A stretch of 64,000 nt of DNA from Patescibacteria group bacterium (GTDB lineage: Bacteria; Patescibacteriota; Minisyncoccia; UBA6257; GWB1-50-10), in NCBI GenBank assembly GCA_030017555.1, contig JASEIC010000001.1, positions 2,571 to 66,570 on the forward strand. The letters are read 5' to 3'. The notes under the pieces were generated by a model that worked only from the letters and a program-made list of their open reading frames with translations, made no database searches and was not told where the DNA came from. The first letter of the stretch is position 1; each line of letters starts with the position of its first letter. Below, piece after piece: positions 23,287 through 60,666 of the stretch. The translations under genes and the position numbers were made by a program.

Positions 23287-23362
23287 TGGTGGGCGCGGAA
23301 GGGATCGAACCTTCGACTTCTGACTTATAAGGTCAGCGTTCTGCCACTGAACTACGCGCCCC
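23287..23362 (-). tRNA. tRNA-Ile with genomically encoded UAU anticodon; CCA encoded
   Basis: Reverse complement gggcgcgtagttcagtggcagaacgctgaccttataagtcagaagtcgaaggttcgatcccttccgcgcccacca. Anticodon stem ctgac/gtcag with loop ctTATaa. Confidence 0.8.
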
Positions 23363-31926: not shown

Positions 31927-33246
31927 ATGACATTTAATAAAAATCAAATCATAGTTATTGCCTCGGTTTTCGGCGCAGTTTTAATTCTTATTTTAATTTT
32001 CACCGGTATTATTCCCGGCCTTAAGCCTAAACCGGAAGTAGTCGAACAATATGAAGCGACTCTTGAGTTCTGGGGAGTTTTTGATACGCCCGAATCTTAT
32101 CGGGCCGGTTTTCAAAATTTTGGAACTATTTACCCTAAAGTCACCATAAATTATCGCGGTTTTTCTGATCCGGAAAATTATGAACGGAATATAATTGAAG
32201 CTCTTGCCGAAGGGCGAGGACCCGATATTTTTATGATCAGGAACACAAGTCTTTTAAATTATTTGGGCAAAACAACGCCGATTCCAAATCAAAAATTCAA
32301 TATTTTCCAATTACGCCGACTTTTCCCGGAAATTGTTGAACAAGATTTTTCAAACCAAGAAAATATTTTTGCTTTACCGGCTTCAATCGATACCTTGGCT
32401 TTAATTTATAATCGCGATCTTTTTAATCAAGCGGGTATTGTTTATCCGCCAGCGACTTGGGAAGCTTTTAAAGATTTGATTCCTAAACTTGTTAAACGCG
32501 AATCAGCCACAAAAATCGTTCGCGCGGCCGCGGCGATTGGAGGTTCCAATAAAACAATAAGCCGAGCAGCCGATTTATTGTCGCTTCTTATGCTTCAAAC
32601 AGGCACAAAAATGGTAAATGAAAATTTAAGCGGCTCCGAGATTGCTTCGCAACAAGCGATAAACGCCCTGGAGTTCTATACCCAATTTTCTGATGCCGCC
32701 AAAGAAAGCTATACCTGGAACGATACTATGCCTAAAGATTTGGATTTTTTTAGCGCGGAAAAAACAGCAATGATTTTTAATTATTCAAAATCCATTCCTG
32801 AAATCCAAAATAAAAACGCTTTTTTAAATCTTGCGGTCGCTCCATTACCTCAGCCAAAAGCCGCCCAAAAACCGATTACTTTTGCCAATTACTGGGGGTA
32901 TGTTGTTTCGCGTCAATCCCGTTTTAATAATGTCGCTTGGGATTTTATTCTTAAACTTACAACCGACGAAGGAAACGCGAAAAGTTACATTGATTCAGCG
33001 AAAAAACCGCCGGCTCTTCTTTCGCTTATTAACCAAGCTGTAAATGACGAGTCAAAACCAAATGAAGCGGTTTTTGCAAAACAAACTCTTATTGCCAAAT
33101 CCTGGCCGGAAACCGAACCGCTCACAATTCAAAAAATTTTTTCTAATGCGATTTCTTCAGTTATAACCGGACAAAAAAGCGTCAAAGGCGCTTTAGAAGA
33201 AGCTAATAATTTAGTATCGCAAATTTTATCAAGGCGAACGCAATAA
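31927..33246 (+). CDS. Extracellular solute-binding protein (ABC transporter substrate-binding, family 1-like), membrane-anchored
   Basis: N-terminal TM anchor followed by a type-2 periplasmic-binding-protein-like sequence. 439 aa. Confidence 0.55.
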   Translation: MTFNKNQIIVIASVFGAVLILILIFTGIIPGLKPKPEVVEQYEATLEFWGVFDTPESYRAGFQNFGTIYPKVTINYRGFSDPENYERNIIEALAEGRGPDIFMIRNTSLLNYLGKTTPIPNQKFNIFQLRRLFPEIVEQDFSNQENIFALPASIDTLALIYNRDLFNQAGIVYPPATWEAFKDLIPKLVKRESATKIVRAAAAIGGSNKTISRAADLLSLLMLQTGTKMVNENLSGSEIASQQAINALEFYTQFSDAAKESYTWNDTMPKDLDFFSAEKTAMIFNYSKSIPEIQNKNAFLNLAVAPLPQPKAAQKPITFANYWGYVVSRQSRFNNVAWDFILKLTTDEGNAKSYIDSAKKPPALLSLINQAVNDESKPNEAVFAKQTLIAKSWPETEPLTIQKIFSNAISSVITGQKSVKGALEEANNLVSQILSRRTQ

Positions 33247-33284: not shown

Positions 33285-33701
33285 ATGAAACCTTTTTTAG
33301 CAGCGCTTTTTATTATTCTTATTGCTTTCTCTTTTTTGCCCATAATTACTCATGGCGCAGAGGGCACGGGGATTTGGGCAAGCACCACCTGCGCTGCCAC
33401 TAGCAATACTGGCGGACCAAACAAGCCTTGTTCGTTTTGCGATGCTCTTATTGTTACAAAAAATATTATTGATTTTCTTTTTAAAGTCGCTATTCCGTTA
33501 GCGGTTGCTATTGCTGTTTATGGCGCGGTTATGATGATGCTTGCGGCGGGCTCAGAAGAAAGAGTAAGAAAATCAAAACAAATCATTACCAGAGCTTTTA
33601 TCGGGCTTGCAATCGCGCTATCGGCTTGGGTTATTATAAATACTTTTCTTCATATATTAACCGGCCAGCCAGATTTCCCGTGGGCAACCATAACGTGTTA
33701 A
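33285..33701 (+). CDS. Pilin-like small protein, paralog 1 (signal peptide plus two C-terminal hydrophobic helices split by a short charged loop; VirB2/TrbC-like topology)
   Basis: Signal peptide. ...VAIPLAVAIAVYGAVMMMLAAGSEERVRKSKQIITRAFIGLAIALSAWVI. Confidence 0.45.
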   Translation: MKPFLAALFIILIAFSFLPIITHGAEGTGIWASTTCAATSNTGGPNKPCSFCDALIVTKNIIDFLFKVAIPLAVAIAVYGAVMMMLAAGSEERVRKSKQIITRAFIGLAIALSAWVIINTFLHILTGQPDFPWATITC

Positions 33702-33716
33702 AATCAAAAAAATAAT

Positions 33717-34058
33717 ATGAAAAAAATAAACATTGCGCTTATTATATTAATTGGTTGGCTGATTAATTTGATTTCTTTTAAAAACGTTTCTGCGACAACC
33801 ACGATTGAGTTGCCAAATCCAATAAATGCCACAAGCACTATTGCGATTTTAAATTCTATTTTAGCCGTATTACAAACTTTTGCGCATCTAATTGTTGTTA
33901 TTATGGTTTTGATTGGCGCTTTTCAGATACTTTTCGCGGCCGGCGATCCGGAAAAATTCAGCAAAGGCAAAAAAACAATATTGTATTCTGTTATAGGATA
34001 TGCTATAGTATTAGTTGCTGGCGGAATAACCAGCTTCATCGCTGATTTTCTACAGTAA
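33717..34058 (+). CDS. Pilin-like small protein, paralog 2
   Basis: Same architecture: ...IVVIMVLIGAFQILFAAGDPEKFSKGKKTILYSVIGYAIVLVAGG. Confidence 0.45.
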   Translation: MKKINIALIILIGWLINLISFKNVSATTTIELPNPINATSTIAILNSILAVLQTFAHLIVVIMVLIGAFQILFAAGDPEKFSKGKKTILYSVIGYAIVLVAGGITSFIADFLQ

Positions 34059-34146
34059 TTTTGCTATAATTAAATCGGCGATCAAAAAGTCATAAAAAGG
34101 TCGAAATCTGGATTTATTTCCTAAACATGAAATTACTAAAAAAAAT

Positions 34147-34509
34147 ATGAAATCAATAATCAAATTCACGGCAATTGTCGGGATAGCAATAATTATGGCC
34201 TTACCACTTATCACCTCGGCCAGAGCAGCCGGACCATTAACACCACCTGTTACTTATGTCCCACCAATTACTAGCATCACGGAAGTAAAAGGCCTTTTAG
34301 ACCGGCTCATTAATTGGTTACAATACATATTCTTCGCTTTAACCGCTTTTTTCCTTATCGGAGCCGCATTCTTATACCTTACTGCTGCTGGCGATGAAGA
34401 TAAAGTAAAGAAAGCGAAACAAATGATTATTTACGCTGTTATTGCAATGGTGATTGCGCTTTTAGCAACAGCGGTTAACACGATTGTCATTACTTTATTA
34501 CAAAGATAG
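34147..34509 (+). CDS. Pilin-like small protein, paralog 3
   Basis: Same architecture: ...LTAFFLIGAAFLYLTAAGDEDKVKKAKQMIIYAVIAMVIALLATAV. Confidence 0.45.
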   Translation: MKSIIKFTAIVGIAIIMALPLITSARAAGPLTPPVTYVPPITSITEVKGLLDRLINWLQYIFFALTAFFLIGAAFLYLTAAGDEDKVKKAKQMIIYAVIAMVIALLATAVNTIVITLLQR

Positions 34510-34556
34510 CAGTAACGGCTGATAAAGGATTTCTCACGAAATTTCTAAAAACACAA

Positions 34557-34600
34557 CCCCCGTCTCTTTCAAAAGGATTTGACGGGGTTTGTTTTATTTT
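34557..34600 (+). terminator. Intrinsic terminator after the pilin-like triplet (acccccgtc...gacggggtttgttttatttt)
   Basis: 8-bp GC-rich stem plus T-run. Lies inside the 5' extension of track ORF 34579, whose real start is therefore 34654. Confidence 0.6.
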
Positions 34601-34653
34601 TAATTTGCCGTCTAAGCTGGAACCGATTTATAATAAATCAAACAAACCGAAAA

Positions 34654-36006
34654 ATGGAGAAAAAACTTCATCTTTTTCTTTTTCTGCTTATCCTTGCTTT
34701 TAACATTCTTTTTCACGTTTTTAATATCGCTTATCCGGCAAAACCAGTTTTTGATGAAGCCCATTTCGCGACTTATGCCGCCCGTTATGCTACTCATCAA
34801 CCGGTCTTTGACATTCATCCGCCTTTGGGCAAACTTTTTTACGCCCTTCCTTTAATTTTTAATCCGGAAAAAGCAAATATTTCTGATGCGAATTTTATTG
34901 AAATGAAAAAAAATCAAAAAACCGGTATTTTTGAAACAACAACTCCTAAAAAAGAATATAGCAACTTTCCTTATGTTCCCTTACGCTTGGTAAATGTTTT
35001 TTTTGGCATCTTGCTTTCAATTTCTGTATTTGCTTTTTTAAAAGCTCTTACGAAAAACAATTTAATTGCTTTATTGGGCATGTTTTTAACTGTTTTTGAC
35101 AACGCCCTGCTTCTTGAGGGCCGTTTAATTCTTTTAAATATAATGTATTTGTCTTTTGGCTTTTTCTCGCTTGCGCTTTTTTTCAAACAAAAATCCTCGC
35201 CGATTTTAGCCGGAATTATTTGGGGGTTTGCTTTAAGCGTGAAATTAATTTCAATAGTTTTTTTGGGCCCGGTTATTACTTTAATTATCCTTTCCAAAAA
35301 TCAGGAAAAATTTAACGCTATAAAAAAATTTGTTATTTTTCTTTTTATTGGGTTCTTTGTCCTTGCCATTGCTCTACTTTTTATAAATCCGATTATTTTC
35401 GGAGCAAACAACAGCCTAAACTTCTATAAAACTCTAATAAGCGATTTAAATCCCGATGCTCAAATAATAAAAAATCCGTTTTTCTCGTTTTTAAATCCTA
35501 TCGCCTCCAACATAAAAGTGGCGGCTATTGAGTTTTATGTAATGCTTTCGGGCTACACCACCGGCGCGTCGCCCCATCCATCTCAAAGCCATTGGTACGC
35601 GTGGCCTATTATGCAAAAAACCATTCCATATTTTATAGAATCGACAAATGAAACAACCAAAACAATCAGCCTTATTGGAAATCCTGTAATTTGGGCTTTG
35701 GGTTTGTTGTCAATATTATTTTTTATTTTCAGAAAACATAAAATTTTTGAAGGTCTTGAAAAAGAAACATGGATAATTTTCATCGGTTATCTCGCTTCAC
35801 TCTTGCCTTATATTTTCATATCCCGCCCGGCCTTTCTTTATCACTACTTCCCCGCTCTTATTTTTTCAATTTGTCTTGCTTCAATTTTTATTGCTAAAAA
35901 AAATAGAAAAGATGAATTAAAAATAAACAAGGTTTTGTTAATAAGTTTAATAACAATTATTATAACAGGATTTATAATAATCTTACCCCGTACGTACGGT
36001 TTCTAA
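34654..36006 (+). CDS. PMT-family (GT39-like, GT-C fold) protein O-mannosyltransferase or related polyprenyl-phosphate-sugar-dependent glycosyltransferase
   Basis: Loop-1 DE motif in PVFDEAHFATYAARY (compare VFDEVHFG of Pmt1) and a polytopic membrane topology. Start trimmed to MEKKLHLF with an SD. Confidence 0.65.
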   Translation: MEKKLHLFLFLLILAFNILFHVFNIAYPAKPVFDEAHFATYAARYATHQPVFDIHPPLGKLFYALPLIFNPEKANISDANFIEMKKNQKTGIFETTTPKKEYSNFPYVPLRLVNVFFGILLSISVFAFLKALTKNNLIALLGMFLTVFDNALLLEGRLILLNIMYLSFGFFSLALFFKQKSSPILAGIIWGFALSVKLISIVFLGPVITLIILSKNQEKFNAIKKFVIFLFIGFFVLAIALLFINPIIFGANNSLNFYKTLISDLNPDAQIIKNPFFSFLNPIASNIKVAAIEFYVMLSGYTTGASPHPSQSHWYAWPIMQKTIPYFIESTNETTKTISLIGNPVIWALGLLSILFFIFRKHKIFEGLEKETWIIFIGYLASLLPYIFISRPAFLYHYFPALIFSICLASIFIAKKNRKDELKINKVLLISLITIIITGFIIILPRTYGF

Positions 36007-36014
36007 TTTTTAAA

Positions 36015-37238
36015 ATGCATTTATTGTTCCAAAATTTAAAAAAATACATTGATCCTATAATTTTGATATCCTGTTTTTCTAACTTAGGAATCATTTTAAT
36101 AACCTTCAATATCATAACAAATACCGCTGAACATTTTTCTTACTTGGCTGAAAGTTTTATAAGTGGCGTTACTTATTTTCTTAAAATGCCGGCAATGAGC
36201 TGGGGTGATACAACGCTTTTCAATAATCACTATTATTGGCCTCTTGGTCCTTTTCCGGCCGTACTTCTCATTCCATTCGTATGGATATTTAAACAATTCA
36301 ACGTATTTTTCCACCAAGGTTATCTTCAATTGCCAATAGTAATAGGAATAGGATATCTTTTTTTTGCTGTTGCCAAACGATTAAAAATAAATAACCGCGA
36401 TTCGCTCTACGCAACTCTCGCATTCATTTCATCATCCTTCTTTATGTTGGCTATTCAGCCTTCCGGTTGGATATTTTCTCAAATAATAGTTATTTTCTTT
36501 ATATTTCTTGCCCTTCTTGAATATTTAACCCGCAAACGGTATCTAATTATCGGATTTTTAATGGGGTGTGTACTTGCCACTCGAATTACTGCCGGACTTG
36601 GCATTTTATTTTTTGTGCTTGATATTATATTTTCTCAAGAATCAAAAAAAATAAAATATCAAAATCTCATAAATCTTGCTGCACCGTTTATGATTATAAT
36701 TATATTACTTGGTTTTTATAATTACCTAAGATTCGAAAATTTTTTAGATTCCGGATATAAACATCAAATCCTTACAAATCCCGCTCTTATAAAAGCGCGG
36801 GATTACGGACTTTTTAGCATTCATCACCTTGCTTCAAATCTTTATTATTTTCTTTTAGCCGGCCCGATTCCGGTCTTTAAAGACAGCATTTCCCGCGTCC
36901 TTGCTTTTCCGTTTATAAAACCCGATCCATGGGGCATGAGTATATTTATAACATCACCATATCTACTTTATATGTTCTGCTTAAAATACAAAGACGGGCT
37001 TTCTAAAATTATTTTAATTACTGCCACGATTATTGCTTTACCAATATTTCTTTATTATGGCATCGGTTGGATACAATTTGGTTACCGTTACGCATTTGAT
37101 TTTTTGCCGTTTATATTTCTTCTCTTTATAAAAAATTACAATGATCGTTACCATAATTTCTCAAAACTTTTAAAAATTATCATAGTTTTCTCGCTCTTCT
37201 TCAACCTGTTTTTAATATTTACGGGCTTCTTAAAATAA
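36015..37238 (+). CDS. Polytopic membrane protein, possible GT-C glycosyltransferase (hypothetical)
   Basis: 407 aa with ~10 TM segments, in an operon with glycosyltransferases. Confidence 0.4.
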   Translation: MHLLFQNLKKYIDPIILISCFSNLGIILITFNIITNTAEHFSYLAESFISGVTYFLKMPAMSWGDTTLFNNHYYWPLGPFPAVLLIPFVWIFKQFNVFFHQGYLQLPIVIGIGYLFFAVAKRLKINNRDSLYATLAFISSSFFMLAIQPSGWIFSQIIVIFFIFLALLEYLTRKRYLIIGFLMGCVLATRITAGLGILFFVLDIIFSQESKKIKYQNLINLAAPFMIIIILLGFYNYLRFENFLDSGYKHQILTNPALIKARDYGLFSIHHLASNLYYFLLAGPIPVFKDSISRVLAFPFIKPDPWGMSIFITSPYLLYMFCLKYKDGLSKIILITATIIALPIFLYYGIGWIQFGYRYAFDFLPFIFLLFIKNYNDRYHNFSKLLKIIIVFSLFFNLFLIFTGFLK

Positions 37239-37256
37239 AAACCAATCAAATATCAT

Positions 37257-37964
37257 ATGGATAAAATTATTATTATCATGCCTGCCTATAATGCGGAACA
37301 AACGCTTAACAGAACTTATCAAGAATTGCCAAAAATATATTCCGAAATAATCCTATGCGACGATGGCAGTAAAGACAAAACCGTTGAAATAAGCCGTACT
37401 TTGAACATCACGACCCTCTTTCATAAAGAAAATAAGGGGTACGGCGCAAACCAAAAAACGCTTTATAACTCGACAATGCAAAAAAATCCAGAAATCATTG
37501 TTATGGTTCACCCAGACAATCAATATGATACAAACTCTATTCCTCTCATGGTGGAAATAATCCGAAGCGGAAAAGCAGATATGGTATTAGGATCAAGGAT
37601 AAAAACAGCTCTTCAAAACGGAATGCCGTATTGGAAATATATTAGTAATAGATTTTTATCTTTTATGCAAAACTTAATATTTAAAACTAATTTATCAGAA
37701 TTTCATTCTGGGCTACGAGCATATAAGGCTTCGATTTTTTTAAAAATGCCTTATCAAAAATTTAAGGACGATTTTACATTTGATAGTGAAATTATTGCTT
37801 GGCTTATTGCGCACAAAATGACGATTAAAGAGATTGATACACAATGTTTTTATACAAAGGAATCGATCTCAAAAACAAATCTTAGACAAAGCATCAATTA
37901 CGGCATCGGCACTCTAAAAACTCTTATAAAATATTTGTTTGGTTATTACAAAAATTTAAAATAA
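37257..37964 (+). CDS. GT2-family glycosyltransferase (polyprenol-phosphate mannose/glucose synthase-like)
   Basis: MDKIIIIMPAYNAEQTL and the DDGSKD DxD-type region typical of Dpm1/GtrB-like GT2 enzymes. Confidence 0.65.
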   Translation: MDKIIIIMPAYNAEQTLNRTYQELPKIYSEIILCDDGSKDKTVEISRTLNITTLFHKENKGYGANQKTLYNSTMQKNPEIIVMVHPDNQYDTNSIPLMVEIIRSGKADMVLGSRIKTALQNGMPYWKYISNRFLSFMQNLIFKTNLSEFHSGLRAYKASIFLKMPYQKFKDDFTFDSEIIAWLIAHKMTIKEIDTQCFYTKESISKTNLRQSINYGIGTLKTLIKYLFGYYKNLK

Positions 37965-37966
37965 CC

Positions 37967-40021
37967 GTGAAAACTCCTAATAAAAAATACGATTATGTAT
38001 TTATAGTGCCGGTTTTTAATGAGGCGTTCATTATTGATCGGTCTTTGAAACTGCTTCTTTCTTTTTTGGAAACCGAATGGATTCACAAAAACAGTGATTG
38101 GAAAATTATTGTGGCTGACAATGCTTCAGCCGATGATTCACGTCAAATTTTGGAAAAACTAAAAAAAGAAAACGAATCTCACGTTGATTACTTATTCGTA
38201 CCCATCAAAGGGCGTGGCAATGCCTTAAAAGAAGTTATAAAAACTTTTGATTCTCAATATTATCTTTATCTCGACGCCGACATACCAATCAATCTCAAGG
38301 AATTGCCCTCAATGTTCGGACCTCTTGAAAACAAAAGGGCTAATCTTACTGTTGGTAGTCGCCGCGGTAAAAGACCTTGGCAAAGAAAAATACTTACTTA
38401 CGGTCTAAAATTTATTGATTGGCTAATTTTTGATTTGAAAATTTCAGATTCTCAATGCGGTATCAAAGCCTTTGATCAAAAAACCGCTTCTTTATTATTA
38501 GAAAAATGCGAAGAAATTGGCTATTTTTTAGATACCGAACTTTTGATTCAAGCCCAAAACAATAATCTCAAAACCCAAGAAGTACCAATTAACTGGATTG
38601 AACAGCGTTACCCGGAAAGAAAAAGCAAAGTTAATTTAATATCCGACGCAATAAAAGCTTTAAATACTATTAAAAAATTAATTCTAAGAACTTGCCCAAA
38701 AATAATATCAAGCACAATCAGTATTGTTACAATCGGTATATTATTATTTGTTATTTTTATCTTTAACAAAATCTACCTTACACTTCCAAATTTTCTAGTT
38801 GCGCATCAATTCCAAGAATCTGCAAAAAAAGTGGTAATTTTTGCTTTTATTTTTTTTATATTTTCAATATTTATCTGGCATGTAACAAAGAAAATAAAAA
38901 ATCTCCCACAAAAATTTGCAACTTTTTTAATCGCTACTGTTTTTATTGCCATCTCCTTAATTGCTATTTTTACCAAACCAACCAGATCACAAGATATTTA
39001 CTGGAACTTACTTTTAACCAAAGGGTTTACTGAACAAGGTCTTAATCCTTACAAAACAACTCCAGAAATATTAAAAAACGATCCGTGGTCGCCGCCAGTT
39101 AAAGATTGGCGCAATCTTTCAATGACCCATGGACCTCTTTGGATTATATTTCTAAGCATTTTCACAACCTTAAAATTATCATTAAATACTTCTCTTATTT
39201 TTATAAAATTAATTTATTTTTTAATTTTGCTTTTTTCCGGTTTTTTAATTTTTAGATTAATGAATGAATTTAATTTTGATGCTGTGAAAAAAAATCAATT
39301 ACTTCTGGTTTTGGCTTGGAATCCAATTTTATTCCAAACAGCTTTAATTGATTTACATAATGATGTTTTTATTCTTTTTTCTATATTAATAAGTTTTTTC
39401 TTTTTTACCAGAAAAAAATACGAACTCAGCACATTGTCTTTGATAATCGGGGGGTTTATAAAATACGCCCCATGGCTTTTAATTCCCTTACCCCTTTTTT
39501 ATTTATTAAAAGGGGGTAACGTTAAAAAAAATATAATCAAAATTATCTTAGGAATCGGAGTTTTTTTGCTTCTAGCTTTCATATTTTATTTACCTTTTGG
39601 TTTTTCCGAGAAAAATTTTGTTGGTTTATCAGTCGAACTCTCTGAACGTAGCAACTATTTTTTTTCGCTTCCAAGTACAATAATTTTTCTGTTATTTCTA
39701 AACCCTTTACAAATAAAATTTTTAGGAATTATCCTGGGATTTTTTGCAATTTATTATTGTATTCAAAAAAATAAACCGTTTTTAGGCTACTTACTTCCTT
39801 TTTTATTAATTTTTCTTTTTGCCACGCCTTGGTTTCAACCATGGTACGTTTTATGGATTCTACCTCTTCTTGCTCTTTCCTGGTCAGTTGAAGCAATTCT
39901 ACTTTTTTCAACTATCCTTATTTTAATGCACGAAGCCATGCCATCTCTCATAATTTCTTTGTTAATCGGCCCTGCTATATTAATAATCTATCTAATAAAA
40001 AAATCGGGATTTTTAAAATAA
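37967..40021 (+). CDS. Fusion of a GT2 polyprenyl-phosphate sugar synthase domain with a large C-terminal polytopic (GT-C-like) membrane domain
   Basis: N-terminal YVFIVPVFNEA...LDADIP...SQCGIKAF GT2 motifs, then ~12 TM helices. Architecture resembles Ppm1/AglD-type fusions. Confidence 0.6.
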   Translation: MKTPNKKYDYVFIVPVFNEAFIIDRSLKLLLSFLETEWIHKNSDWKIIVADNASADDSRQILEKLKKENESHVDYLFVPIKGRGNALKEVIKTFDSQYYLYLDADIPINLKELPSMFGPLENKRANLTVGSRRGKRPWQRKILTYGLKFIDWLIFDLKISDSQCGIKAFDQKTASLLLEKCEEIGYFLDTELLIQAQNNNLKTQEVPINWIEQRYPERKSKVNLISDAIKALNTIKKLILRTCPKIISSTISIVTIGILLFVIFIFNKIYLTLPNFLVAHQFQESAKKVVIFAFIFFIFSIFIWHVTKKIKNLPQKFATFLIATVFIAISLIAIFTKPTRSQDIYWNLLLTKGFTEQGLNPYKTTPEILKNDPWSPPVKDWRNLSMTHGPLWIIFLSIFTTLKLSLNTSLIFIKLIYFLILLFSGFLIFRLMNEFNFDAVKKNQLLLVLAWNPILFQTALIDLHNDVFILFSILISFFFFTRKKYELSTLSLIIGGFIKYAPWLLIPLPLFYLLKGGNVKKNIIKIILGIGVFLLLAFIFYLPFGFSEKNFVGLSVELSERSNYFFSLPSTIIFLLFLNPLQIKFLGIILGFFAIYYCIQKNKPFLGYLLPFLLIFLFATPWFQPWYVLWILPLLALSWSVEAILLFSTILILMHEAMPSLIISLLIGPAILIIYLIKKSGFLK

Positions 40022-40075: not shown

Positions 40076-40160
40076 GGGCAGGTGATGAAACTGGCAGACA
40101 TGCAAGGTTTAGGACCTTGTGCCGCAAGGCTTGAGGGTTCAAATCCCTCCCTGCCCACCA
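40076..40160 (+). tRNA. tRNA-Leu (anticodon UAG), class II with long variable arm; CCA encoded
   Basis: gggcaggtgatgaaactggcagacatgcaaggtttaggaccttgtgccgcaaggcttgagggttcaaatccctccctgcccacca. Anticodon loop ttTAGga. Confidence 0.85.
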
Positions 40161-40194: not shown

Positions 40195-40219
40195 GTGGGC
40201 GGCCGCAACGGCCGCCCAC
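40195..40219 (+). terminator. Very stable GC hairpin (gtgggcggccg caa cggccgcccac) followed by a U-rich tract; probable tRNA-Leu terminator
   Basis: 11-bp perfect GC stem with a 3-nt loop, then tgattttg. Confidence 0.55.
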
Positions 40220-40364: not shown

Positions 40365-42755
40365 ATGCCTAAATCTATCAAGCACAATATACTTCCAGTT
40401 GTAGTTTTTATCACCGGAGCGTGCGTTTTGATTGTGGAAATAGTCGCAACTCGTGTGCTTTCTCCGTTTTATGGAAACACGATTTTTACAGTTTCCAGCG
40501 TAATTAGTGTCATCCTTGCAGCTTTGAGTGTTGGGTATTATGCAGGAGGTCGGCTTGCTGATCGTCACCCTTCTTTACGTTGGTTTTTCAGCATAATTCT
40601 TTTGAGCGGTCTTGCTTTACTCTTGTTTCATTTTATAGGCGCAATCGCTCTGCCGATTTTGGGGTATACGCTCTCAATTTCGGCTGGGCCGTTGATTTCT
40701 TCTTTACTTCTATTTTTCATCCCAGCATTTCTACTTGGCACATTATCTCCATACGCCGTTAAACTTCAAAGCGTAAATTTTCCTGAGCAAGGCATTGGAA
40801 GTGTTGCGGGAAAAATTTTCTTTTGGTCTACACTTGGAAGTATCGTCGGAAGTTTATTAGCCGGCTTTATACTCATTCCGTATTTCGGAGTAAATCAGAT
40901 TATCATTGCAAACGGAGTTGTATTATTTTTTCTCGGTTTGATACCGCTCTCAATATTAGGTGAGAAAAAATATCTAGGTAAATCTTTGTTGGCATTGATA
41001 ATTCTCGTTAGTATCTCGCTATATATTTTCCACACAACAAGAGAAAATGTTTTATATAGCAAAGACGGAATATACGAAAAAATCACTATTTATGATGGTC
41101 AGTTTGCCGGACGGCCAACAAGATTTTTCGAGCAAGATCGTAGCAGATCGGGCGCTATGTTTTTAGATTCCAATGACCCAAAAGATTTAGTGTATGACTA
41201 TACAAAATATTATTCACTCTACAAAGTATTCAATCCGGAAGTTAAAAATGCCCTCGTAATAGGCGGCGGCATGTATTCGATCCCAAAAGCATTGCTCGCA
41301 GATTTACCGAACGCAACTATTGATGTTTCAGAAATAGAGCCTTTATTATACGACCTCGCAAAAAAATACTTCGGCGTAAATGACAATCCGCGACTCCACA
41401 ATTACATCAATGACGGCCGCCGCCTACTTCACGATTCAAGCAAAAATTATGACCTGATATTTAGCGATGTGTGCTATTCGCTTTCAATACCAGCACACTT
41501 CACGACTGAAGATTTTTTTGAAATTGCTAAAGAGAAACTAAATAAAGATGGAATTTTCGTTACGAACATAATAGGCGATTTGTCACGCCAGCAACCCTCG
41601 CTAATCATGTCGGAAATCAAAACTTTTCAAGCTGTTTTTCCAAATAGTTATTTTTTTGCGGTTGAATCACCAAAAAAAACTCAATCGCAAAATATCATTT
41701 TTGTTGGGTACAATAGCGATAAACATATTGATCTGAACGCACCGTCAATCATTGCTAATTCCGACCCGATTATCCGTTCTCTACAAAATAAAGTTATAGA
41801 TACGAATAGATTTGATTTATCGCCCTATCCGATAATGACGGACAATTACTCGCCAGTAGAATATTTGACGGGCCAAGTGTTGCAAAGAACTTTCAATCAG
41901 AAGGATTTTTTTGATGGAAAAGAAATGTTAGCAATTATTGATCAACAATTACGCTATGGCCCGCGTTATCCAACCGCAACTGGGCATAAGCAAGTACAAG
42001 ATTTTCTCGTTGCGGAAATGAAGGAGCTAACGCAAGAAGTAAAGACGCAAACATGGCAACACACCGAATCAAACGGGAAATCGTATGAATTGACAAACAT
42101 TATTGCTCGACTATATCCAACACAGACAAAGCGCATAATACTTGCAACACACTATGACAGTCAAAAAAATTCTTTCAAAAATTCCTCCAATCAAGATCAA
42201 CCATCGCCAGGTGCCAACAATTCAGCTTCAGGCGTTGCGATATTAGTCGAGCTGGCTCGTCTTTTGGGTAATTCTCATGTGTTGCCGAGCGTTGGTGTTG
42301 ATATTGTATTTTTTGACGGCAAGGAAGGAGAGGAAAATCAAAGTGGAGATTTTACGAACTGGAAACCGCTCGGCTCCGCTTATTTTGCACAACATCTGAA
42401 CGAAATTTATGGGAATAATAAACCAGTGTCCGGTGTTGTGTTAGATATGGTCTGTGATAAGGATTTGAAAATTTCTAAAGAGGCTTCGTCTGTGAAAAAC
42501 GCTCCAACTCAAACAGAAGCATTTTGGAATATCGCGCGAAAAATCAACAGCAATGTATTTCAGAATAAGGTTGGGCAAGAAATTCGAGACGATCATACTT
42601 CACTCAACCAAGCTGGCATACCGAGCTTTCTTGTGATTGATTACGATTATCCTCAATACGCGACCACGAACGATACTATAGATAAATGCAGTTCTGAAAG
42701 TTTACAAACGGTTGCCGAGGCAGTTTGGAATTATGTCTACTACGGAGTTCAATAA
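40365..42755 (+). CDS. Three-part fusion: N-terminal MFS-like polytopic membrane domain, central spermidine-synthase-like (class I MTase fold) domain, and C-terminal M28-peptidase / glutaminyl-cyclase-like domain
   Basis: ~8 N-terminal TMs. Spermidine-synthase-like core VIGGGMYSIPKALL...DLIFSDV. C-terminal M28-like ATHYDSQKN...PGANNSASGVAILVELARLL...VVLDMV. Confidence 0.6.
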   Translation: MPKSIKHNILPVVVFITGACVLIVEIVATRVLSPFYGNTIFTVSSVISVILAALSVGYYAGGRLADRHPSLRWFFSIILLSGLALLLFHFIGAIALPILGYTLSISAGPLISSLLLFFIPAFLLGTLSPYAVKLQSVNFPEQGIGSVAGKIFFWSTLGSIVGSLLAGFILIPYFGVNQIIIANGVVLFFLGLIPLSILGEKKYLGKSLLALIILVSISLYIFHTTRENVLYSKDGIYEKITIYDGQFAGRPTRFFEQDRSRSGAMFLDSNDPKDLVYDYTKYYSLYKVFNPEVKNALVIGGGMYSIPKALLADLPNATIDVSEIEPLLYDLAKKYFGVNDNPRLHNYINDGRRLLHDSSKNYDLIFSDVCYSLSIPAHFTTEDFFEIAKEKLNKDGIFVTNIIGDLSRQQPSLIMSEIKTFQAVFPNSYFFAVESPKKTQSQNIIFVGYNSDKHIDLNAPSIIANSDPIIRSLQNKVIDTNRFDLSPYPIMTDNYSPVEYLTGQVLQRTFNQKDFFDGKEMLAIIDQQLRYGPRYPTATGHKQVQDFLVAEMKELTQEVKTQTWQHTESNGKSYELTNIIARLYPTQTKRIILATHYDSQKNSFKNSSNQDQPSPGANNSASGVAILVELARLLGNSHVLPSVGVDIVFFDGKEGEENQSGDFTNWKPLGSAYFAQHLNEIYGNNKPVSGVVLDMVCDKDLKISKEASSVKNAPTQTEAFWNIARKINSNVFQNKVGQEIRDDHTSLNQAGIPSFLVIDYDYPQYATTNDTIDKCSSESLQTVAEAVWNYVYYGVQ

Positions 42756-53630: not shown

Positions 53631-53777
53631 AAAATGAATCCCTCACCCTCCAAAGATTGTTTAACATAAAAACAAAAAATATTCCTATGAATTACAAGCA
53701 ATTAAAAACAACAAGTTTCAAAACGCTTCTCTGGTCGCGAAGCGACTTTATCTTTGAAAGGTGAGGGATGAAATTTT
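53631..53777. mobile_element. Miniature inverted-repeat element (copy A, no ORF) of the tccctcaccc/gggtgaggga family. The right repeat provides the stop, SD and ATG of the downstream gene.
   Basis: Left aaaatgaatccctcaccctccaaagat (53631-53657) and right atctttgaaaggtgagggatgaaatttt (53750-53777) are imperfect inverted repeats around a 92-bp core with an internal gtcgcgaagcgac hairpin. Confidence 0.45.
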
Positions 53778-54577
53778 CACCAACTAAAAAATCAGCGGCT
53801 GTTATCATAATTATCACAAGCATATTTGCTTCGGTTTTTATTATTTTTTCATCGCAAACGCCTCAAGAAAAAGGTTTTTTAAAAATCTCGGCAAACTTAA
53901 ATGACGCGAATCCTTATTTAAATTTTAAAGCTCTTACAAATAACGGATTAACTGAAGCTGCAAAAAAAACCGAAAATAAAGTTTTGACTGATAATTTAAC
54001 CGATCAGCTCATCAACAATTACGGCTATGAAATTCTAAAGCGGAATCCCAGTGGCCCCTTAAACCGGGGTGGCGGACAAAGTCTGACTATGCCTTCTCAA
54101 AATCTTCTTCAAAAATTGCTGGAGGACAAATTAACGCAAAATCTCAAAATAGATTTTTATGAAATCAAAGACTTAAAAATTGGCAACGACAATTCTCTTA
54201 AAGCTGTCCGCGCTTATCTTGAAGTTTTAAACAGCGTCAATAAAAAAAATCTTTTGGTCATAAAAAAATCTCCTTTTGCGATGTTTAATGATTTTTTCCG
54301 CAAAAAAAATCCGGATCAGCTTTATCAGTATCTCGGTTTTTTATCTAGTTATACAACCGACCTTTTGAAAATTTCAGTGCCGTCTTCTTGGCAGGCATTT
54401 CATTTGGAATTATTAAACTTAGAGCAGAAAAAAATTACTATTTATCAAACCCTTGTTAATGCGGAACAAGATCCAGTCAAAGCCCTGATTGCCGCCCAAG
54501 AAATAGAAAAAATTGACCAAGAAGAACTCGATTTAGCCACGGTTTTACAAGAAAAATTAAAGGACTTAAATATTTAA
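53768..54577 (+). CDS. N-anchored membrane protein, possible VirB8/TcpC-like T4SS component (hypothetical)
   Basis: Single N-terminal TM plus a ~240-aa extracytoplasmic domain. First gene of the T4SS-like cluster. The ATG sits inside the repeat. Confidence 0.35.
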   Translation: MKFSPTKKSAAVIIIITSIFASVFIIFSSQTPQEKGFLKISANLNDANPYLNFKALTNNGLTEAAKKTENKVLTDNLTDQLINNYGYEILKRNPSGPLNRGGGQSLTMPSQNLLQKLLEDKLTQNLKIDFYEIKDLKIGNDNSLKAVRAYLEVLNSVNKKNLLVIKKSPFAMFNDFFRKKNPDQLYQYLGFLSSYTTDLLKISVPSSWQAFHLELLNLEQKKITIYQTLVNAEQDPVKALIAAQEIEKIDQEELDLATVLQEKLKDLNI

Positions 54578-54580
54578 TTT

Positions 54581-56374
54581 ATGCTAAAAACGCAAAAAAT
54601 AATTACTATTTTCCTTGTTATTTCAGTTATAACCGCCGGCTTTTTCTTTCCTTTTCAAATAAAAGAGGCTAAAGCGGACATTGCCGGTGATTTTACGAAA
54701 CATTGTGTTGGCGACTTACTTTTTGATATAGGGTTGGAGTTAGGTCTTGGTAATGTCATTACTAAAATTGAAGAATTTCTTTCGCCAGGATCAGTGCCTT
54801 CAAGTGATGCAAATACTAAAGCGGAGCTAAGAAGATTTGAGCTTAAAGAATGTTTTAGGCGCTTAAAAGATCTGGCAATTGTTGCGGCCCACAATTATTT
54901 GAAAAAACGGCTTTTAGACCGGCTTGTTGACCAGACTGTTCAATGGATTCAAAACGGCGACGAACCAAGATTTGTCAGTGACTTTGACGAATTTCTTAAA
55001 GACGCGCACCAAGCGGCCGTTGGCGATACGCTTCGCGATATTGGTTTGGCAAAATTATGCGATGGGACTTTCGGAGCAAAATTAGAGCTTACTTTGGGAA
55101 AACGCGAACCGAGAAAGCTGACCCGAGACGTTACCTGCACATTAGATCAGGTTGTAGGCAATATTAATGCTTTTCGCAATGACTTTCAAAAAGGCGGCTG
55201 GCTTGGCATTCAAGAGGCCGCAAATCCAAGAAATAATATCTTTGGTTTAAAACTCATGGTTGTGGACAGAACAATCCGAGAAATTAGTATAAAACAAGAA
55301 ACAACTAAAGCTGAAGTCGCGGCAACCGGAATTAAGCCCCAAAAAAAATGTCTTGAATACACACTACTGGACAAAAAAACAGACGCTATTCTTAGACCAG
55401 GAGACTTTCATCCAATTGGCTCTGGCGGCTCTGATATGCTTGTGGGTCTAAATCCTACACCAGCTAATGCTGACGGCACGCCGCCAAGTCTATATGATGT
55501 AGCTATTAATTCCGGCCGCGCTTATTGGCGCTGTTCTAATGAACAAATAATAACTCCGGCTAACACCATAGCCGCAATAATAGCTAAAACCGGGGGCTTA
55601 GATTATGATTATATTTTAAACAGCGAAGATGTTTCTTCTTATTTTTCAGTTATATCTGACGCATTAATCAATCGGCTTACCACTGAAACCGGCAAGGGTT
55701 TGCGCGGTCTTTTTAAAGGCGGCGGCAGTCCTTCGCGAGGCGACGCAGGGTATCGCAACACTGATTATATAGACAGTAATACCGCTACTGCAATCCAAAA
55801 CTACGAAGGCACACTTACTGAAAATTATGAACTTAGCCCTGCCACAATAACCGCCAGTAAAGATGGTATGCTTGCCGCGATTGCTAAAGCCACTTCTTCT
55901 ATTGCAAATGCAGGAATAAATCTTAATACCGCAACACCAAAAAGATTAGAATTACTTCATTTGCTTTCTAACACGGCATTGAAGCCGGGTTGGGGCCTTA
56001 TTCAATGCATAAATCATATTGCAAATGTACACTCGCCCTTCACTTATGCAAGCGATCCGCCTATTGGACCAGACGTCCAAAGCACTTATGATTCTTACAA
56101 CACAGGCGGCGCTAACGCGCAAATTATTACGTCTTTAACAAATCAAATCGCGCCGCTTAATACTTCGGCAAACACCTTAAAAACCCAGGTAACAAACGCG
56201 GTTACTTCAGCAGATATTACGGCTTTAATACCTAAAGTAAATTCGCTTCTTACTGACGCTAAAAGTCTTGAAACAAATTCTCAATCAATCTTAAACGGGT
56301 TAGTAGAATTAGTAGCAACCGCCACAAATCAACGTCGGGACTGCAATGATTTTGATAGCGAATTTGATTCATAA
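54581..56374 (+). CDS. Secreted 597-aa protein (hypothetical; possible T4SS surface/adhesin component)
   Basis: Signal peptide MLKTQKIITIFLVISVITAGFFFPFQIKEAKA. No catalytic motifs recognised. Confidence 0.45.
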   Translation: MLKTQKIITIFLVISVITAGFFFPFQIKEAKADIAGDFTKHCVGDLLFDIGLELGLGNVITKIEEFLSPGSVPSSDANTKAELRRFELKECFRRLKDLAIVAAHNYLKKRLLDRLVDQTVQWIQNGDEPRFVSDFDEFLKDAHQAAVGDTLRDIGLAKLCDGTFGAKLELTLGKREPRKLTRDVTCTLDQVVGNINAFRNDFQKGGWLGIQEAANPRNNIFGLKLMVVDRTIREISIKQETTKAEVAATGIKPQKKCLEYTLLDKKTDAILRPGDFHPIGSGGSDMLVGLNPTPANADGTPPSLYDVAINSGRAYWRCSNEQIITPANTIAAIIAKTGGLDYDYILNSEDVSSYFSVISDALINRLTTETGKGLRGLFKGGGSPSRGDAGYRNTDYIDSNTATAIQNYEGTLTENYELSPATITASKDGMLAAIAKATSSIANAGINLNTATPKRLELLHLLSNTALKPGWGLIQCINHIANVHSPFTYASDPPIGPDVQSTYDSYNTGGANAQIITSLTNQIAPLNTSANTLKTQVTNAVTSADITALIPKVNSLLTDAKSLETNSQSILNGLVELVATATNQRRDCNDFDSEFDS

Positions 56375-56380
56375 AATTCT

Positions 56381-58801
56381 ATGCGGAAACATTTAAAGAA
56401 AATCGCGTTAATATCAATCCCGATAATCATCTTAATTTCTCTTGTGCCAATACTGGCTCATAGTCAGGGCTTTTGGGAAGTTTTAAATCCAATTAACTGG
56501 ATTAAGTGGGCAATAATGGCTGTTCTTTACCTTATTTCTTATATCGGCACATTATTTTTCAGTTTGGCGGGTTATTTGGTCGGTTTCTTTTTAAAATTCA
56601 ATTATGGAATTTTAAATTCAAATAATTTAATTGACCGCGGCTGGGCAATCACAAGAGATATTGCCAATCTCGGTTTTGTTCTGGTAATCGTGATTATTGC
56701 CCTCGCTACCATCTTACGATTTCAAGAATACGGCTACAAAAAACTCTTGCCGAAACTTATCGCGGCGGCAATTCTTGTAAATTTCAGCCTGGCCATTGCC
56801 GGCGTTTTTATTGATTTTTCCCATGTTTTAACCAAACAATTTTTCAGCGCGGTTGAAAGCCCGGGCACTGATATAGTCCAAGTGCTCTCCGGCGCCTTTG
56901 AGCCGCAAAAATTTTATACCGAACCTCTTGACCCGGCTCCAATTGACCCTGAAGAAGAAGCCGGCGGCTTTGAAGGATTTACGGTTTCCGTGCTCCTTGA
57001 TATTTCAAAACTTTTATTTACGGCAATTTTTATTTTTGCCGCGGCATTTGTTCTGTTTGCTTTTGCTTTTATGCTTCTTCTCCGATATATTTATTTATCG
57101 CTTCTTTTGGTTATCGCGCCTATTGCCTGGCTTTTTTGGGTTTTTCCGGCTTTGTCGGGCCAATTTAAAAAATGGTGGAGTAAATTCCTGGAATGGGTAT
57201 TTTTCGCGCCCGTTGTCGCTTTTTTCTTTTATTTAACGCTCACTTCCATAAAAAGCTTGAATCAAAACGCTCTTTTGCCGGACGGCACGTTCTTTAAAGG
57301 CACTCTTTCTGATTTAATGGCTCAAGGCGCGAAAATGGTTTTGCTCATCGGCCTTCTTTTTGGCGGCTTAATTATTGCCCAACAAATGGGTATTACCGGC
57401 GCGGCCGGCGCCATGAAAATGGCAAACACGGTCGGCAACAAAACCAAAAAATGGGCCGGAGAGAAAATGAAAGCTGGCGGTATTGCGGCTGGCAGACGAG
57501 CTCTTACGACCGGCGCTGGCAAAGATTTGGAAGGCAAATCCGCGCTTGAAAGAGCTGGAGAAGGAGTTGGCGGCAAGCTGGCGGAGTGGGGTTCCACAAA
57601 ATGGGGCAGGCGCTTTGGCATTGGAGTCTTAAGTAAACCATTCACCGGTATTGCCGGCGCGTCAGCTCAAGCTAAAGAAAAATTAAAAGCTGAAACCGAA
57701 GCCAGAGCAAAAAAGAGAATGCCGGAATCTTCGGAACTTGCTTTAGCGCGAATGCGTCTAGAATTAAGCAAACCTGAAGCGCTTGCTGATTCAGCATCAA
57801 CTGTCGCTAGTTTTACAAAAATCGCTCAAGATAAAAAAATGTGGGGTAGCCTAACCCCGCAAGAACAAGAAAAAATGCGGGATCGCGCTATTTCCGCCGG
57901 CCGGAAAACTAATTCTCTAGATAAGGTCATAGATGCCGACAAAGCATTGCTGGATCGACCGGAAATATTACCCGACGAAAAATTACTCAAGGCTTCTCTT
58001 GACGCGCAAAAATCTCCGGACTTTGAAAATCTGCCGGATGACATAAAACAAGCTATTTATGAAGGAATAGCGAGAACAGTTTTAAAACTGCCGGATAATC
58101 TAACGGATATCGCGCCTAATATTATAAAACTGCTTGAAAATAAAGACGCCCGCGAAATCATAAGACAACGCGGCTTAGAAGACGCGCTTTACAGCAAAAT
58201 AGAAGCTTCCAATGCTACCGGAGCCGTTAATAGAAACTTGCGTATTCAAGCTGCCGCGCTAGATCCTAGCAGGTTTTTTGAAAGTCTAGGTTTTGATGCG
58301 CCAAGCATATCAAATGACGAAAAAGATGAATCAATGAAAGAAATTCTTTCCAGAGTAAAAGATCCGGCAAATCTGATAATAAATGATCTAAGCGCTCTTT
58401 CCCAAAATCAGCGCGCTATTCAAACACGCCTTGTTCAAAATTTGAGCTTTAATCTGCACAGTAAAATTGGCAGTGAAGGTTCGCCAGAACTTAAAACCAA
58501 CACTATTCACACTCTTGCAAGAGGCATTGATCAACTTACTGGCACAAATACTTTTGCTGATCTTAAAAAGTTCTCTGGTGATATTAAGGAATTTGAAGAG
58601 CAATACGAAGCCTTAAGACGAGAGAAGGGCGCAAACGATAGCTCTACTCTGGCTAAAGCTGCTCAATTCAACCAAGCCAAAACCGATCTAAAAACAGCAG
58701 AAACAAATCTTAAAAACATCTCCAAAGACGCTCATCAACTTTGGCAAGTTTATCAAAAAGATCTTAAAGACACCAATTATCAAGACGCAACTTGGCCTTA
58801 A
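56381..58801 (+). CDS. VirB6/TrbL-like polytopic membrane protein with a long C-terminal hydrophilic domain (TcpH/PrgH-type)
   Basis: ~8 N-terminal TM helices over ~330 aa, then a ~470-aa charged domain. The architecture matches Gram-positive VirB6 homologues. Confidence 0.5.
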   Translation: MRKHLKKIALISIPIIILISLVPILAHSQGFWEVLNPINWIKWAIMAVLYLISYIGTLFFSLAGYLVGFFLKFNYGILNSNNLIDRGWAITRDIANLGFVLVIVIIALATILRFQEYGYKKLLPKLIAAAILVNFSLAIAGVFIDFSHVLTKQFFSAVESPGTDIVQVLSGAFEPQKFYTEPLDPAPIDPEEEAGGFEGFTVSVLLDISKLLFTAIFIFAAAFVLFAFAFMLLLRYIYLSLLLVIAPIAWLFWVFPALSGQFKKWWSKFLEWVFFAPVVAFFFYLTLTSIKSLNQNALLPDGTFFKGTLSDLMAQGAKMVLLIGLLFGGLIIAQQMGITGAAGAMKMANTVGNKTKKWAGEKMKAGGIAAGRRALTTGAGKDLEGKSALERAGEGVGGKLAEWGSTKWGRRFGIGVLSKPFTGIAGASAQAKEKLKAETEARAKKRMPESSELALARMRLELSKPEALADSASTVASFTKIAQDKKMWGSLTPQEQEKMRDRAISAGRKTNSLDKVIDADKALLDRPEILPDEKLLKASLDAQKSPDFENLPDDIKQAIYEGIARTVLKLPDNLTDIAPNIIKLLENKDAREIIRQRGLEDALYSKIEASNATGAVNRNLRIQAAALDPSRFFESLGFDAPSISNDEKDESMKEILSRVKDPANLIINDLSALSQNQRAIQTRLVQNLSFNLHSKIGSEGSPELKTNTIHTLARGIDQLTGTNTFADLKKFSGDIKEFEEQYEALRREKGANDSSTLAKAAQFNQAKTDLKTAETNLKNISKDAHQLWQVYQKDLKDTNYQDATWP

Positions 58802-58817
58802 TTTAATTATTTAAAAT

Positions 58818-60617: not shown

Positions 60618-60666
60618 TAACACAAAAAATATTTAGTTCGACTATAATAAATTTAATCACACTTTC

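Follow-up and report, generated by a model that had tools for sequence, protein, structure and literature searches.

Conserved adjacency of a PMT-family glycosyltransferase gene and tandem VirB2/TrbC-type pilin genes in Patescibacteria, and the possibility of pilin O-mannosylation

When a gene for a protein O-mannosyltransferase (PMT)-family enzyme lies next to a tandem array of conjugative-type pilin genes, are the pilins its substrates or only its neighbours? This question is raised by a 64,000-nucleotide stretch of a Patescibacteria chromosome (assembly GCA_030017555.1, contig JASEIC010000001.1, positions 2,571 to 66,570; hereafter the window, with coordinates counted from its first nucleotide), in which three genes for small membrane proteins are followed by a PMT-family gene and three further genes related to glycosylation. 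Family identities, membrane topology, catalytic motifs and the adjacency of PMT and pilin array in relatives were computed here. A sub-clan of PMTs was found almost always at a pilin array, and pilin arrays were found mostly without a PMT. Judging from topology, GT39/GT-C biology and gene linkage, we give a probability of about 0.5 to the reading that the PMT O-mannosylates the pilin N-termini. The seven open reading frames (ORFs) in question all lie on the + strand, at the coordinates originally predicted:

33285-33701, + strand: pilin 1 ("type A"), 138 aa; PF18895, 33.0 bits
33717-34058, + strand: pilin 2 ("type B"), 113 aa; PF18895, 35.7 bits
34147-34509, + strand: pilin 3 ("type C"), 120 aa; PF18895, 35.4 bits
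34654-36006, + strand: PMT-family GT-C glycosyltransferase, GT39-like, 450 aa; Pfam PMT and PMT_4TMC
36015-37238, + strand: polytopic membrane protein, probable GT-C, 407 aa; hhalign against the PMT profile
37257-37964, + strand: small soluble GT2, DPMS/PpgS/AglJ-like, 235 aa; Glycos_transf_2, 73.7 bits
37967-40021, + strand: fusion of a DPMS/ArnC/GtrB-like GT2 and an ALG3/PIG-M/PimE-type (MptA_B) GT-C, 684 aa

On sequence criteria, the product of the gene at 34654-36006 can be regarded securely as a genuine PMT-family enzyme. It scored 100.8 bits against Pfam PMT and 88.7 bits against PMT_4TMC (cut-offs of 22.7 and 32.4, respectively), and its start at ATG 34654 agrees with the NCBI protein record (P0001, 100% identical); an alternative TTG start at 34579 falls within the terminator hairpin described below. 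The loop-1 motif FDEAHF occupies residues 33-38 (34750-34767) and aligns residue for residue with VFDEVHF of the fungal Pmt entries 9i5k, 9e61 and 6p25, as does HPPLGK with their HPPLGK. Residues D34, E35, H55, P56, K60, R111 and K197 are invariant in 30 PMT homologues, so that the original prediction of a PMT-type GT-C enzyme carrying FDEAHF is borne out, with the catalytic Asp-Glu pair and the basic residues (K60, R111, K197) all in place. No MIR domain was matched in a Pfam search of the 450-residue protein, which rules out the eukaryotic subfamily alone; to our knowledge, bacterial Pmts also lack MIR domains. Against the NCBIfam equivalog for actinobacterial Pmt (NF058602) the protein reached 22.3 bits, and because this is far below the cut-off of 800, the sequence comparison places the PMT of the window on a separate branch of the family rather than within the actinobacterial equivalog.

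This distance is also a ground for supposing that the PMT-like enzyme does something other than mannosylate proteins, transferring another sugar or serving a non-protein acceptor, as ArnT-type GT-Cs do. Sugar specificity is not readable from sequence, and the neighbours of a related PMT (locus L089, see below) would yield an N-acetylated amino-deoxy sugar instead of mannose. Set against this are the scores of both PMT domains, well above threshold, the residue-for-residue alignment of the Asp-Glu motif and HPPLGK with fungal PMTs, and the mannosyltransferase fold of the partner GT-C. We therefore regard this alternative as very unlikely.

The family identity of the three small proteins as VirB2/TrbC-type pilins is likewise secure. 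All three exceed the PF18895 (T4SS_pilin) gathering cut-off of 26.6 bits, which argues that the resemblance is not due to chance; PF18895 is present in nearly all of 120 pilin homologues and PF04956 (TrbC) additionally in several. Two of the three also resemble the NCBIfam Mbov_0395 pilin-like conjugal transfer protein of a Mycoplasma integrative and conjugative element, below its cut-off (E = 2e-8 for pilin 2). Pilin 3, like the PMT, is 100% identical to a protein recorded at NCBI for a Patescibacteria metagenome-assembled genome. As originally predicted, the three tandem paralogs have in common a signal peptide and a basic loop, AAG[SD].E..[KR].K, in which A87, A88, G89, K96 and K98 are invariant in their alignment, and their pairwise identity is 27-30%. 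Hydropathy and alignment give the same layout for each: a cleavable signal peptide, a Ser/Thr/Pro-rich linker, and two hydrophobic helices with a short basic loop between them, that is, the topology of VirB2/TrbC pilins. The predicted cleavage sites, read from the sequences (THG|AEG in pilin 1, VSA|TTT in pilin 2 and ARA|AGP in pilin 3), have -3/-1 residues that would fit signal peptidase I. In the AlphaFold2 model of pilin 3 (predicted local distance difference test score, pLDDT, of 83.7), helices span residues 2-24, corresponding to the signal peptide, 44-79 and 84-119, the latter two forming a hairpin, and residues 25-43 are modelled with low confidence and without secondary structure. This disordered linker of pilin 3 (AGPLTPPVTYVPPITSIT) includes a recurrent P[IV]TS[IL] motif, that of pilin 2 is TTTIELPNPINATST, and that of pilin 1 is Ser/Thr-rich with 3 Cys, the protein ending in a FPWATITC tail whose last residue is also Cys.

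Like Agrobacterium VirB2, F-plasmid TraA and RP4 TrbC, the window pilins combine a long signal peptide with a two-helix hairpin and a basic inter-helix loop, but no significant sequence or fold match to the solved structures of that group was obtained. A Foldseek search of the pilin 3 model against the PDB gave no match at E <= 0.001, only non-significant helical hairpins, among which the Aeropyrum pernix conjugation pilus 8dfu ranked fourth (E = 2.4, probability 0.57). Run against PDB sequences, a profile built from 25 pilins matched just designed proteins and the phage G8P signal peptide, which were dismissed as noise. Since the structure searches were non-significant, membership of the pilin family rests on sequence models and topology. 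A holin or phage origin was also considered for the small proteins and rejected, as none of them matched a holin or any other phage family in PHROGs.

Two observations on the wider pilin family were made in passing. Type-A pilins (window 33285-33701; L012:8380-8802, L008:6703-7119, L009:7305-7718) retain four cysteines, one in the linker, two in a CxxC just before helix 1 and one at or near the C-terminus after a conserved FPW, an arrangement that suggests disulfides joining the N-terminal extension to the C-terminal tail. The homologues P0121, P0122, P0125, P0130 and L083:8001-8708 have 235-244 residues, about twice the usual pilin length, and, from length only, may be duplicated pilin domains.

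The evidence that connects enzyme and array comes from relatives. Eighty loci around PMT homologues, drawn from GTDB species representatives, were scanned with a hidden Markov model (HMM) iterated from the three window pilins, and a neighbour-joining tree was built from 77 distinct PMTs (GTDB species representatives plus other fetched loci) and read as unrooted splits, as the midpoint root falls inside the pilin-linked group. A single split sets apart exactly 28 of the 77 PMTs. In 24 of these, 1-6 pilin genes were found within 4.2 kb; another could not be assessed for want of flanking sequence, and three (L004, L018, L026) have no pilin gene nearby, also under relaxed search settings. No pilin gene lies in the 20-kb neighbourhood of any of the other 49 PMTs, which include those of Dehalococcoidia, Pseudonocardia, Teredinibacter and other Patescibacteria branches. 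The link between array and PMT operon, whose conservation in relatives had been suggested as a check, therefore holds for the PMT (24 of the 27 testable members of the sub-clan), but not from the side of the array, since about three quarters of arrays lack an adjacent PMT, and not for the other three genes of the operon, which are not kept beside it.

The pairing was found in several gene orders. In most linked loci the order is S1 (minus strand), then Lactamase_B, an ORF, GyrA, a solute-binding protein (SBP), the pilin array and the PMT, followed further on by Xer (minus strand), NYN and PNPase, with array and PMT co-directional (e.g., L005-L016, L019). In L027 the PMT lies within the array; L030, L041 and L055 have it convergent with the array and following TsaD-PrsW-HSP20; in L089 the array is followed by genes for a GT2, an acetyltransferase, an epimerase/dehydratase and a DegT aminotransferase, then by a convergent PMT. 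Thus, PMT-array adjacency occurs in at least three gene orders and survives rearrangement. Close kinship was considered as the whole explanation of the synteny, given that relatives with 80% and 55% identity have the entire block, and was set aside as incomplete, as the rearranged loci keep the pairing. Two features of L089 are recorded here in their own right: its pilins (L089:4733-7892) carry large Cys-rich N-terminal extensions of 190-330 residues with a weak DUF4215 match, and the genes between its array and PMT are those for an N-acetylated amino-deoxy sugar.

If the pilins are the acceptors, modification would be sought in the linker that leads from the signal peptide to the first helix of the hairpin, as this linker is predicted to be extracytoplasmic and disordered, and GT39 PMTs act on extracytoplasmic disordered segments. 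The linkers of PMT-adjacent pilins contain 20.6-21.8% Ser+Thr and 8.6-8.9% Pro, compared with 11.2% and 4.6% in long ORFs of the same loci and 10.4% and 2.4% in the pilin core. The motif P[IV]T[ST][ILV] occurs in 14 of 90 PMT-adjacent pilin linkers vs 3 of 53, and type-C pilins such as pilin 3 have a recurrent P[IV]TS[IL] directly before the first helix. The peptide AGPLTPPVTYVPPITSITEVK of pilin 3 is put forward as a candidate site of hexose modification. The original prediction had named as possible substrates both the pilins and Thr/Ser/Pro-rich surface proteins of the window. No genuine window gene product was found to have an extended Ser/Thr-rich stretch, and the second part of that proposal is not supported; the pilins gain support from PMT-array adjacency and from their Ser/Thr-rich linkers, and stay candidate acceptors.

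The transcriptional layout of the locus is given by the following elements:

31927-33246, + strand: SBP_bac_1 homologue, membrane-anchored solute-binding protein, directly 5' of the pilin array; Pfam SBP_bac_1, 71.5 bits
33250-33277, + strand: promoter-like TTGCAA-16-TATAAT, 5' of pilin 1; consensus match only
34553-34601, + strand: intrinsic-terminator-like hairpin and T-run, 3' of the pilin array; sequence reading and fold
34605-34634, + strand: promoter-like TTGCCG-18-TATAAT, 5' of the PMT operon; consensus match only
40076-40160, + strand: tRNA-Leu(TAG), at the operon end
40195-40219, + strand: strong terminator with an 11-bp stem of 10 GC pairs

The strong terminator originally described after the small ORFs was recovered as a GC-rich CCCCGTC/GACGGGG hairpin with extensions, followed by TTTGTTTTATTTTT. 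It was not flagged by a consensus terminator scan, its loop being longer than 8 nt, and folding was used instead; the hairpin appears in the minimum-free-energy fold of the 121-nt region (z = -2.47). Intergenic gaps of only 8, 18 and 2 nt separate the four downstream genes, and since tRNA-Leu and a strong terminator stand at the end, the sequence is consistent with a single transcription unit running from the PMT to 40219.

As for the other genes of this operon, the 407-aa protein is a probable GT-C glycosyltransferase, an assignment made by comparing profiles. No Pfam match even at E <= 10 and no PDB sequence match were obtained for it, and the local copy of Pfam likewise gave no match at E <= 10 for the C-terminal domain of the fusion protein; in place of Pfam, profile-profile comparison and structure were turned to. 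With hhalign, the 407-aa protein was aligned to the PMT profile over 208 N-terminal columns, that is, in its N-terminal half only (probability 86.8%, E = 4e-6), and it resembles the NCBIfam LA_3751/LA_3752 putative glycosyltransferase below the cut-off (E = 3.8e-5); its family comprises at least 1793 cluster representatives. The 235-aa GT2 is closest in NCBIfam to AglJ (1e-21), PpgS (4e-19) and Dol-P-hexose transferase (4e-14), all below the equivalog cut-offs, and its best PDB sequence match is Pyrococcus DPMS 5mlz (E = 6e-6). Both GT2s resemble polyprenyl-phosphate-sugar synthases of the DPMS/Ppm1/GtrB/ArnC group, in line with the Dpm1-like GT2 and the GT2-polytopic fusion of the original prediction. 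The C-terminal GT-C domain of the fusion matches in fold the Dol-P-Man- or polyprenyl-phosphate-mannose (PPM)-dependent mannosyltransferases ALG3, PIG-M and PimE (MptA_B, PF26314), which points to mannose as the sugar.

The neighbourhood of these genes is less constant than that of the PMT. The fusion gene lies 3' of the PMT in the closest relative (L001, 80% identical), whose contig ends 84 codons into a GT2 ORF, and probably also in a 55%-identical Jorgensenbacteria genome, where PMT (L002) and fusion (L171) are on separate contigs, their junction being deduced and not observed directly. Only in this window do the small GT2 and the 407-aa protein adjoin the PMT; the one other 407-aa homologue in the examined loci (L006) is encoded about 3.7 kb downstream of a PMT. 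Hence, of the dedicated lipid-linked-sugar O-glycosylation pathway that had been proposed, the connection of the PMT to the pilins stands, and a fixed association of the 407-aa protein, the small GT2 and the fusion with the array does not, as they are not kept beside it in relatives. PMT-GT2 pairing was also noticed outside Patescibacteria, in two Pseudonocardiaceae loci (L069:7949-11103, L073:8407-11386) in which a GT2 related to the N-terminal domain of the fusion lies divergently beside a PMT homologue.

A number of these and further results weigh against the O-mannosylation of the pilins by the adjacent PMT. Glycosylation is not known for conjugative-type pilins. The Ser/Thr/Pro enrichment is non-specific, being common in extracellular linkers, so that linker composition fits without singling out a glycosylation substrate; moreover, the difference between PMT-adjacent linkers (21.8% Ser+Thr) and those of same-backbone arrays without PMT (16.3%) is modest, and its Mann-Whitney p of 0.0018 was computed on per-pilin values with phylogeny ignored. 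The pilin 3 model, as said, found no significant structural match in the PDB. In this window, a terminator and a promoter-like site stand between the pilin genes and the PMT operon, which look as if they are transcribed separately. Most linked loci have the same larger block of genes, and thus much of the linkage signal is one inherited arrangement; part of the PMT-array adjacency could be inherited synteny. A metagenome scan, made with type-B pilins only and so biased towards relatives of this clade, yielded 80 loci, nearly all with the GyrA-SBP-array order, and among those in which sequence downstream of the array extends for 2 kb or more the array was directly followed by a PMT in 8 and lacked one in 24. 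A PMT therefore adjoins only about 25% of arrays and is not needed for the array, since most homologous arrays have no PMT alongside; in other lineages, arrays without PMT lie beside SpoIID/M23 genes (L083) or in a type IV secretion system (T4SS) locus (L085, Saccharibacteria). Finally, the three extra glycosylation genes are lineage-specific insertions that are not linked to pilins elsewhere.

Much of this can be accommodated if array and enzyme are neighbours and not partners, the PMT and the GTs forming a general envelope-glycosylation module for secreted proteins, lipoproteins such as the SBP, or lipoglycans, housed in a recombination-prone variable slot. Indeed, the GyrA-SBP-array...Xer-NYN-PNPase backbone is kept with or without the PMT, and the slot between array and Xer-NYN-PNPase is empty in L153 and holds a PMT or other genes elsewhere; in the window it contains, at a G+C content of 0.30-0.32, not only the PMT and the three glycosylation genes after it but also tRNA-Leu and the gene for an MFS-spermidine-synthase-M28 fusion. 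The terminator that follows the pilin genes fits this explanation as well, as do homologues of the GT2 fusion that stand alone, far from any pilin. It accounts poorly for the 24 of 27 testable sub-clan PMTs that adjoin an array, including those outside the backbone (L027, L030, L041, L055, L089), for the absence of pilin genes near all 49 other PMTs, and for linkers that are richer in Ser/Thr where a PMT adjoins. A general module is thus held to be a minority possibility, albeit one to be taken seriously.

Some features of the backbone and slot deserve mention beside this. The backbone (window 27246-47254; L005-L016, L091-L170) spans many Patescibacteria lineages. An origin of the region as a prophage or integrative island, on account of tRNA-Leu and a tyrosine recombinase, was considered and rejected; the recombinase is probably a housekeeping one, because it is part of the Xer-NYN-PNPase backbone in relatives. 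The fusion in the low-GC slot (40365-42755, 796 aa) joins an MFS-like membrane domain, a spermidine synthase and an M28 peptidase, and scored 251 bits against the NCBIfam "fused MFS/spermidine synthase". The GyrA-SBP-pilin order holds in almost all related loci, often with an SBP-array gap of 0-10 nt, and the SBP_bac_1 protein (31927-33246) is an "orphan", with no ABC permease or ATPase gene nearby. Its function may be linked to the pilins, with possible roles such as adhesin, tip protein or further substrate of the PMT. Outside this region, the window is a Paceibacteria-type chromosome stretch of 30-43% GC with many housekeeping genes, including those for LeuRS, NusA, FtsK, RecA, FtsH, S1, GyrA and PNPase, and at 23287-23361 (minus strand) it encodes a tRNA-Ile with anticodon TAT (UAU). 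Such a tRNA-Ile is unusual, as the normal bacterial reader of AUA is a CAU tRNA modified with lysidine.

Whether any glycan would be displayed on a filament depends on the small proteins being pilus subunits and on a machine to assemble them. The T4SS-like locus originally noted in the window was confirmed, with the following genes:

60120-60617, + strand: PrgI/VirB3-like protein; Pfam PrgI, 28.5 bits
60667-61314, + strand: TraC-like ORF, 215 aa; TraC_F_IV (weak)
61311-63068, + strand: VirB4-type ATPase; P-loop_TraG, 99.3 bits, and AAA_10

This T4SS (60120-63068) is presumed to be the assembly machine for the pilins. Searched with the HMM iterated from the window pilins, the whole window gave no pilin gene besides these three, and four large ORFs 5' of the T4SS core (53768-59738; 269, 597, 806 and 306 aa), which gave no Pfam match at E <= 1, may encode VirB6/VirB8-like or novel T4SS components. 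The TraC-like ORF overlaps the downstream VirB4-like ATPase ORF by 4 nt; this split is probably genuine rather than the product of a frameshift, because the Saccharibacteria T4SS locus is likewise split, with a separate TraC-like gene (L085:46-819).

The three proteins might instead be two-helix membrane proteins with some other role, for instance as membrane-embedded channel or anchor components of a T4SS, or as secreted membrane-active factors, in which case glycosylation would not be on a filament. The array lies 20-26 kb from the T4SS genes and outside their locus, monoderm T4SSs usually have no VirB2 (PMC12102498, PMC12857230), and the fold and profile searches against solved pilins were non-significant. 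On the other side, all three proteins exceed the T4SS_pilin cut-off and many homologues match TrbC (PF04956) too, holin and phage families are unmatched, and equivalent arrays stand inside T4SS loci of other Patescibacteria, the PrgI/TraC-like/pilin neighbourhood recurring in the Saccharibacteria locus L085. In addition, the T4SS and VirB2-like array are reported to be essential for host-dependent growth of Southlakia epibionticum, the only Patescibacterium open to genetic manipulation (Wang et al., 2023, Cell; cited in PMC12102498 and PMC12857230). A role other than that of pilus subunits is consequently considered unlikely.

In the pathway that we favour, the sugar, the acceptor and the assembly of a pilus are what we infer. 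The pilins would be exported by Sec, cut by signal peptidase I and seated in the membrane as two-helix hairpins, with the Lys/Arg-rich loop facing the cytoplasm and the 15-35-residue Ser/Thr/Pro-rich disordered N-terminal extension facing outside, where the active site of the MIR-less PMT would also lie, on the outer face of the membrane. A DPMS-like GT2 at the cytoplasmic face would make the polyprenyl-P-sugar, and the PMT would move mannose from polyprenyl-phosphate-mannose to Ser/Thr of the pilin N-terminal extensions and possibly of other Sec substrates. The added operon genes would render the pathway self-contained in this lineage, the two further GT-C-type enzymes, one of them fused to its own DPMS-like GT2, elongating the glycan or decorating other envelope acceptors. 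The VirB3/VirB4 T4SS encoded about 20-26 kb downstream would then polymerise the glycosylated pilins into a filament. In solved VirB2/TraA-type pili both termini are outside, and by analogy N-termini and glycans would be placed on the outer surface of the filament.

This pathway has parallels in known systems. With actinobacterial O-mannosylation (Ppm1, Pmt/Rv1002c and PimE-type GT-Cs using the same donor) it has in common a MIR-less PMT with the Asp-Glu motif, a DPMS-like GT2 and a PimE/ALG3-fold GT-C, and the acceptors would likewise be Sec-exported disordered Ser/Thr/Pro-rich segments; in contrast, the window PMT is distant in sequence and comes from a Patescibacterium, a DPMS-like domain is fused to the GT-C, and in the genome the PMT is linked to a single family of candidate substrates. 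The O-glycosylation of type IV pilins (PilO/TfpO, PglL) and flagellins offers the same arrangement of a subunit gene beside a dedicated membrane glycosyltransferase, with a lipid-linked sugar and a glycan exposed on the filament. It differs in that a type IV pilin takes the place of the VirB2 hairpin, Wzy_C/O-antigen-ligase-like oligosaccharyltransferases that of the GT39 PMT, and an undecaprenyl-pyrophosphate (Und-PP)-oligosaccharide donor that of the polyprenyl-P-monosaccharide. The known maturation of VirB2, TraA and TrbC, for its part, consists of N-acetylation or head-to-tail cyclisation, not glycosylation.

Tandem VirB2-like arrays in Patescibacteria have already been published (2023, 2025): 441 arrays of 2-11 genes were described (PMC12102498; Quinonero-Coronel et al., 2025), and a six-gene array is known in S. 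epibionticum (PMC12857230, review). The window array resembles these in its PF18895 match (PF04956 on some members), its divergent tandem paralogues of ~25% identity (2-11 per array) and its monoderm-type VirB3/VirB4 T4SS in the genome without a relaxase nearby; unlike them, it lies outside the T4SS locus, in the GyrA-SBP-array backbone and with a PMT-family gene 3' of it. Neither glycosylation nor a PMT is mentioned in PMC12102498 or PMC12857230, and full-text literature searches retrieved no paper linking Patescibacteria or VirB2 pilins to O-mannosylation or pilin glycosylation, so that the PMT link is apparently unreported.

We put forward with some hesitation, at somewhat short of an even chance, a broader proposal: that O-glycosylation of the exposed N-termini of VirB2-type T4SS pilins is the dedicated task of the Patescibacteria PMT sub-clan, which would make this the first glycosylated conjugative-type pilus, and that divergent paralogues and lineage-specific glycan genes of the variable slot diversify the surface of the filament with which these epibionts contact their hosts. 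If this is false, the locus is still useful as a conserved backbone with a variable envelope-glycosylation slot. A conserved glycosyltransferase beside the arrays offers a concrete idea, open to testing, of how pilins mature and what chemistry their surface carries across a large radiation of uncultured bacteria. If true, bacterial protein O-mannosylation would reach beyond Actinobacteria, and glycosylation would join the modifications that are known for conjugative-type pilins.

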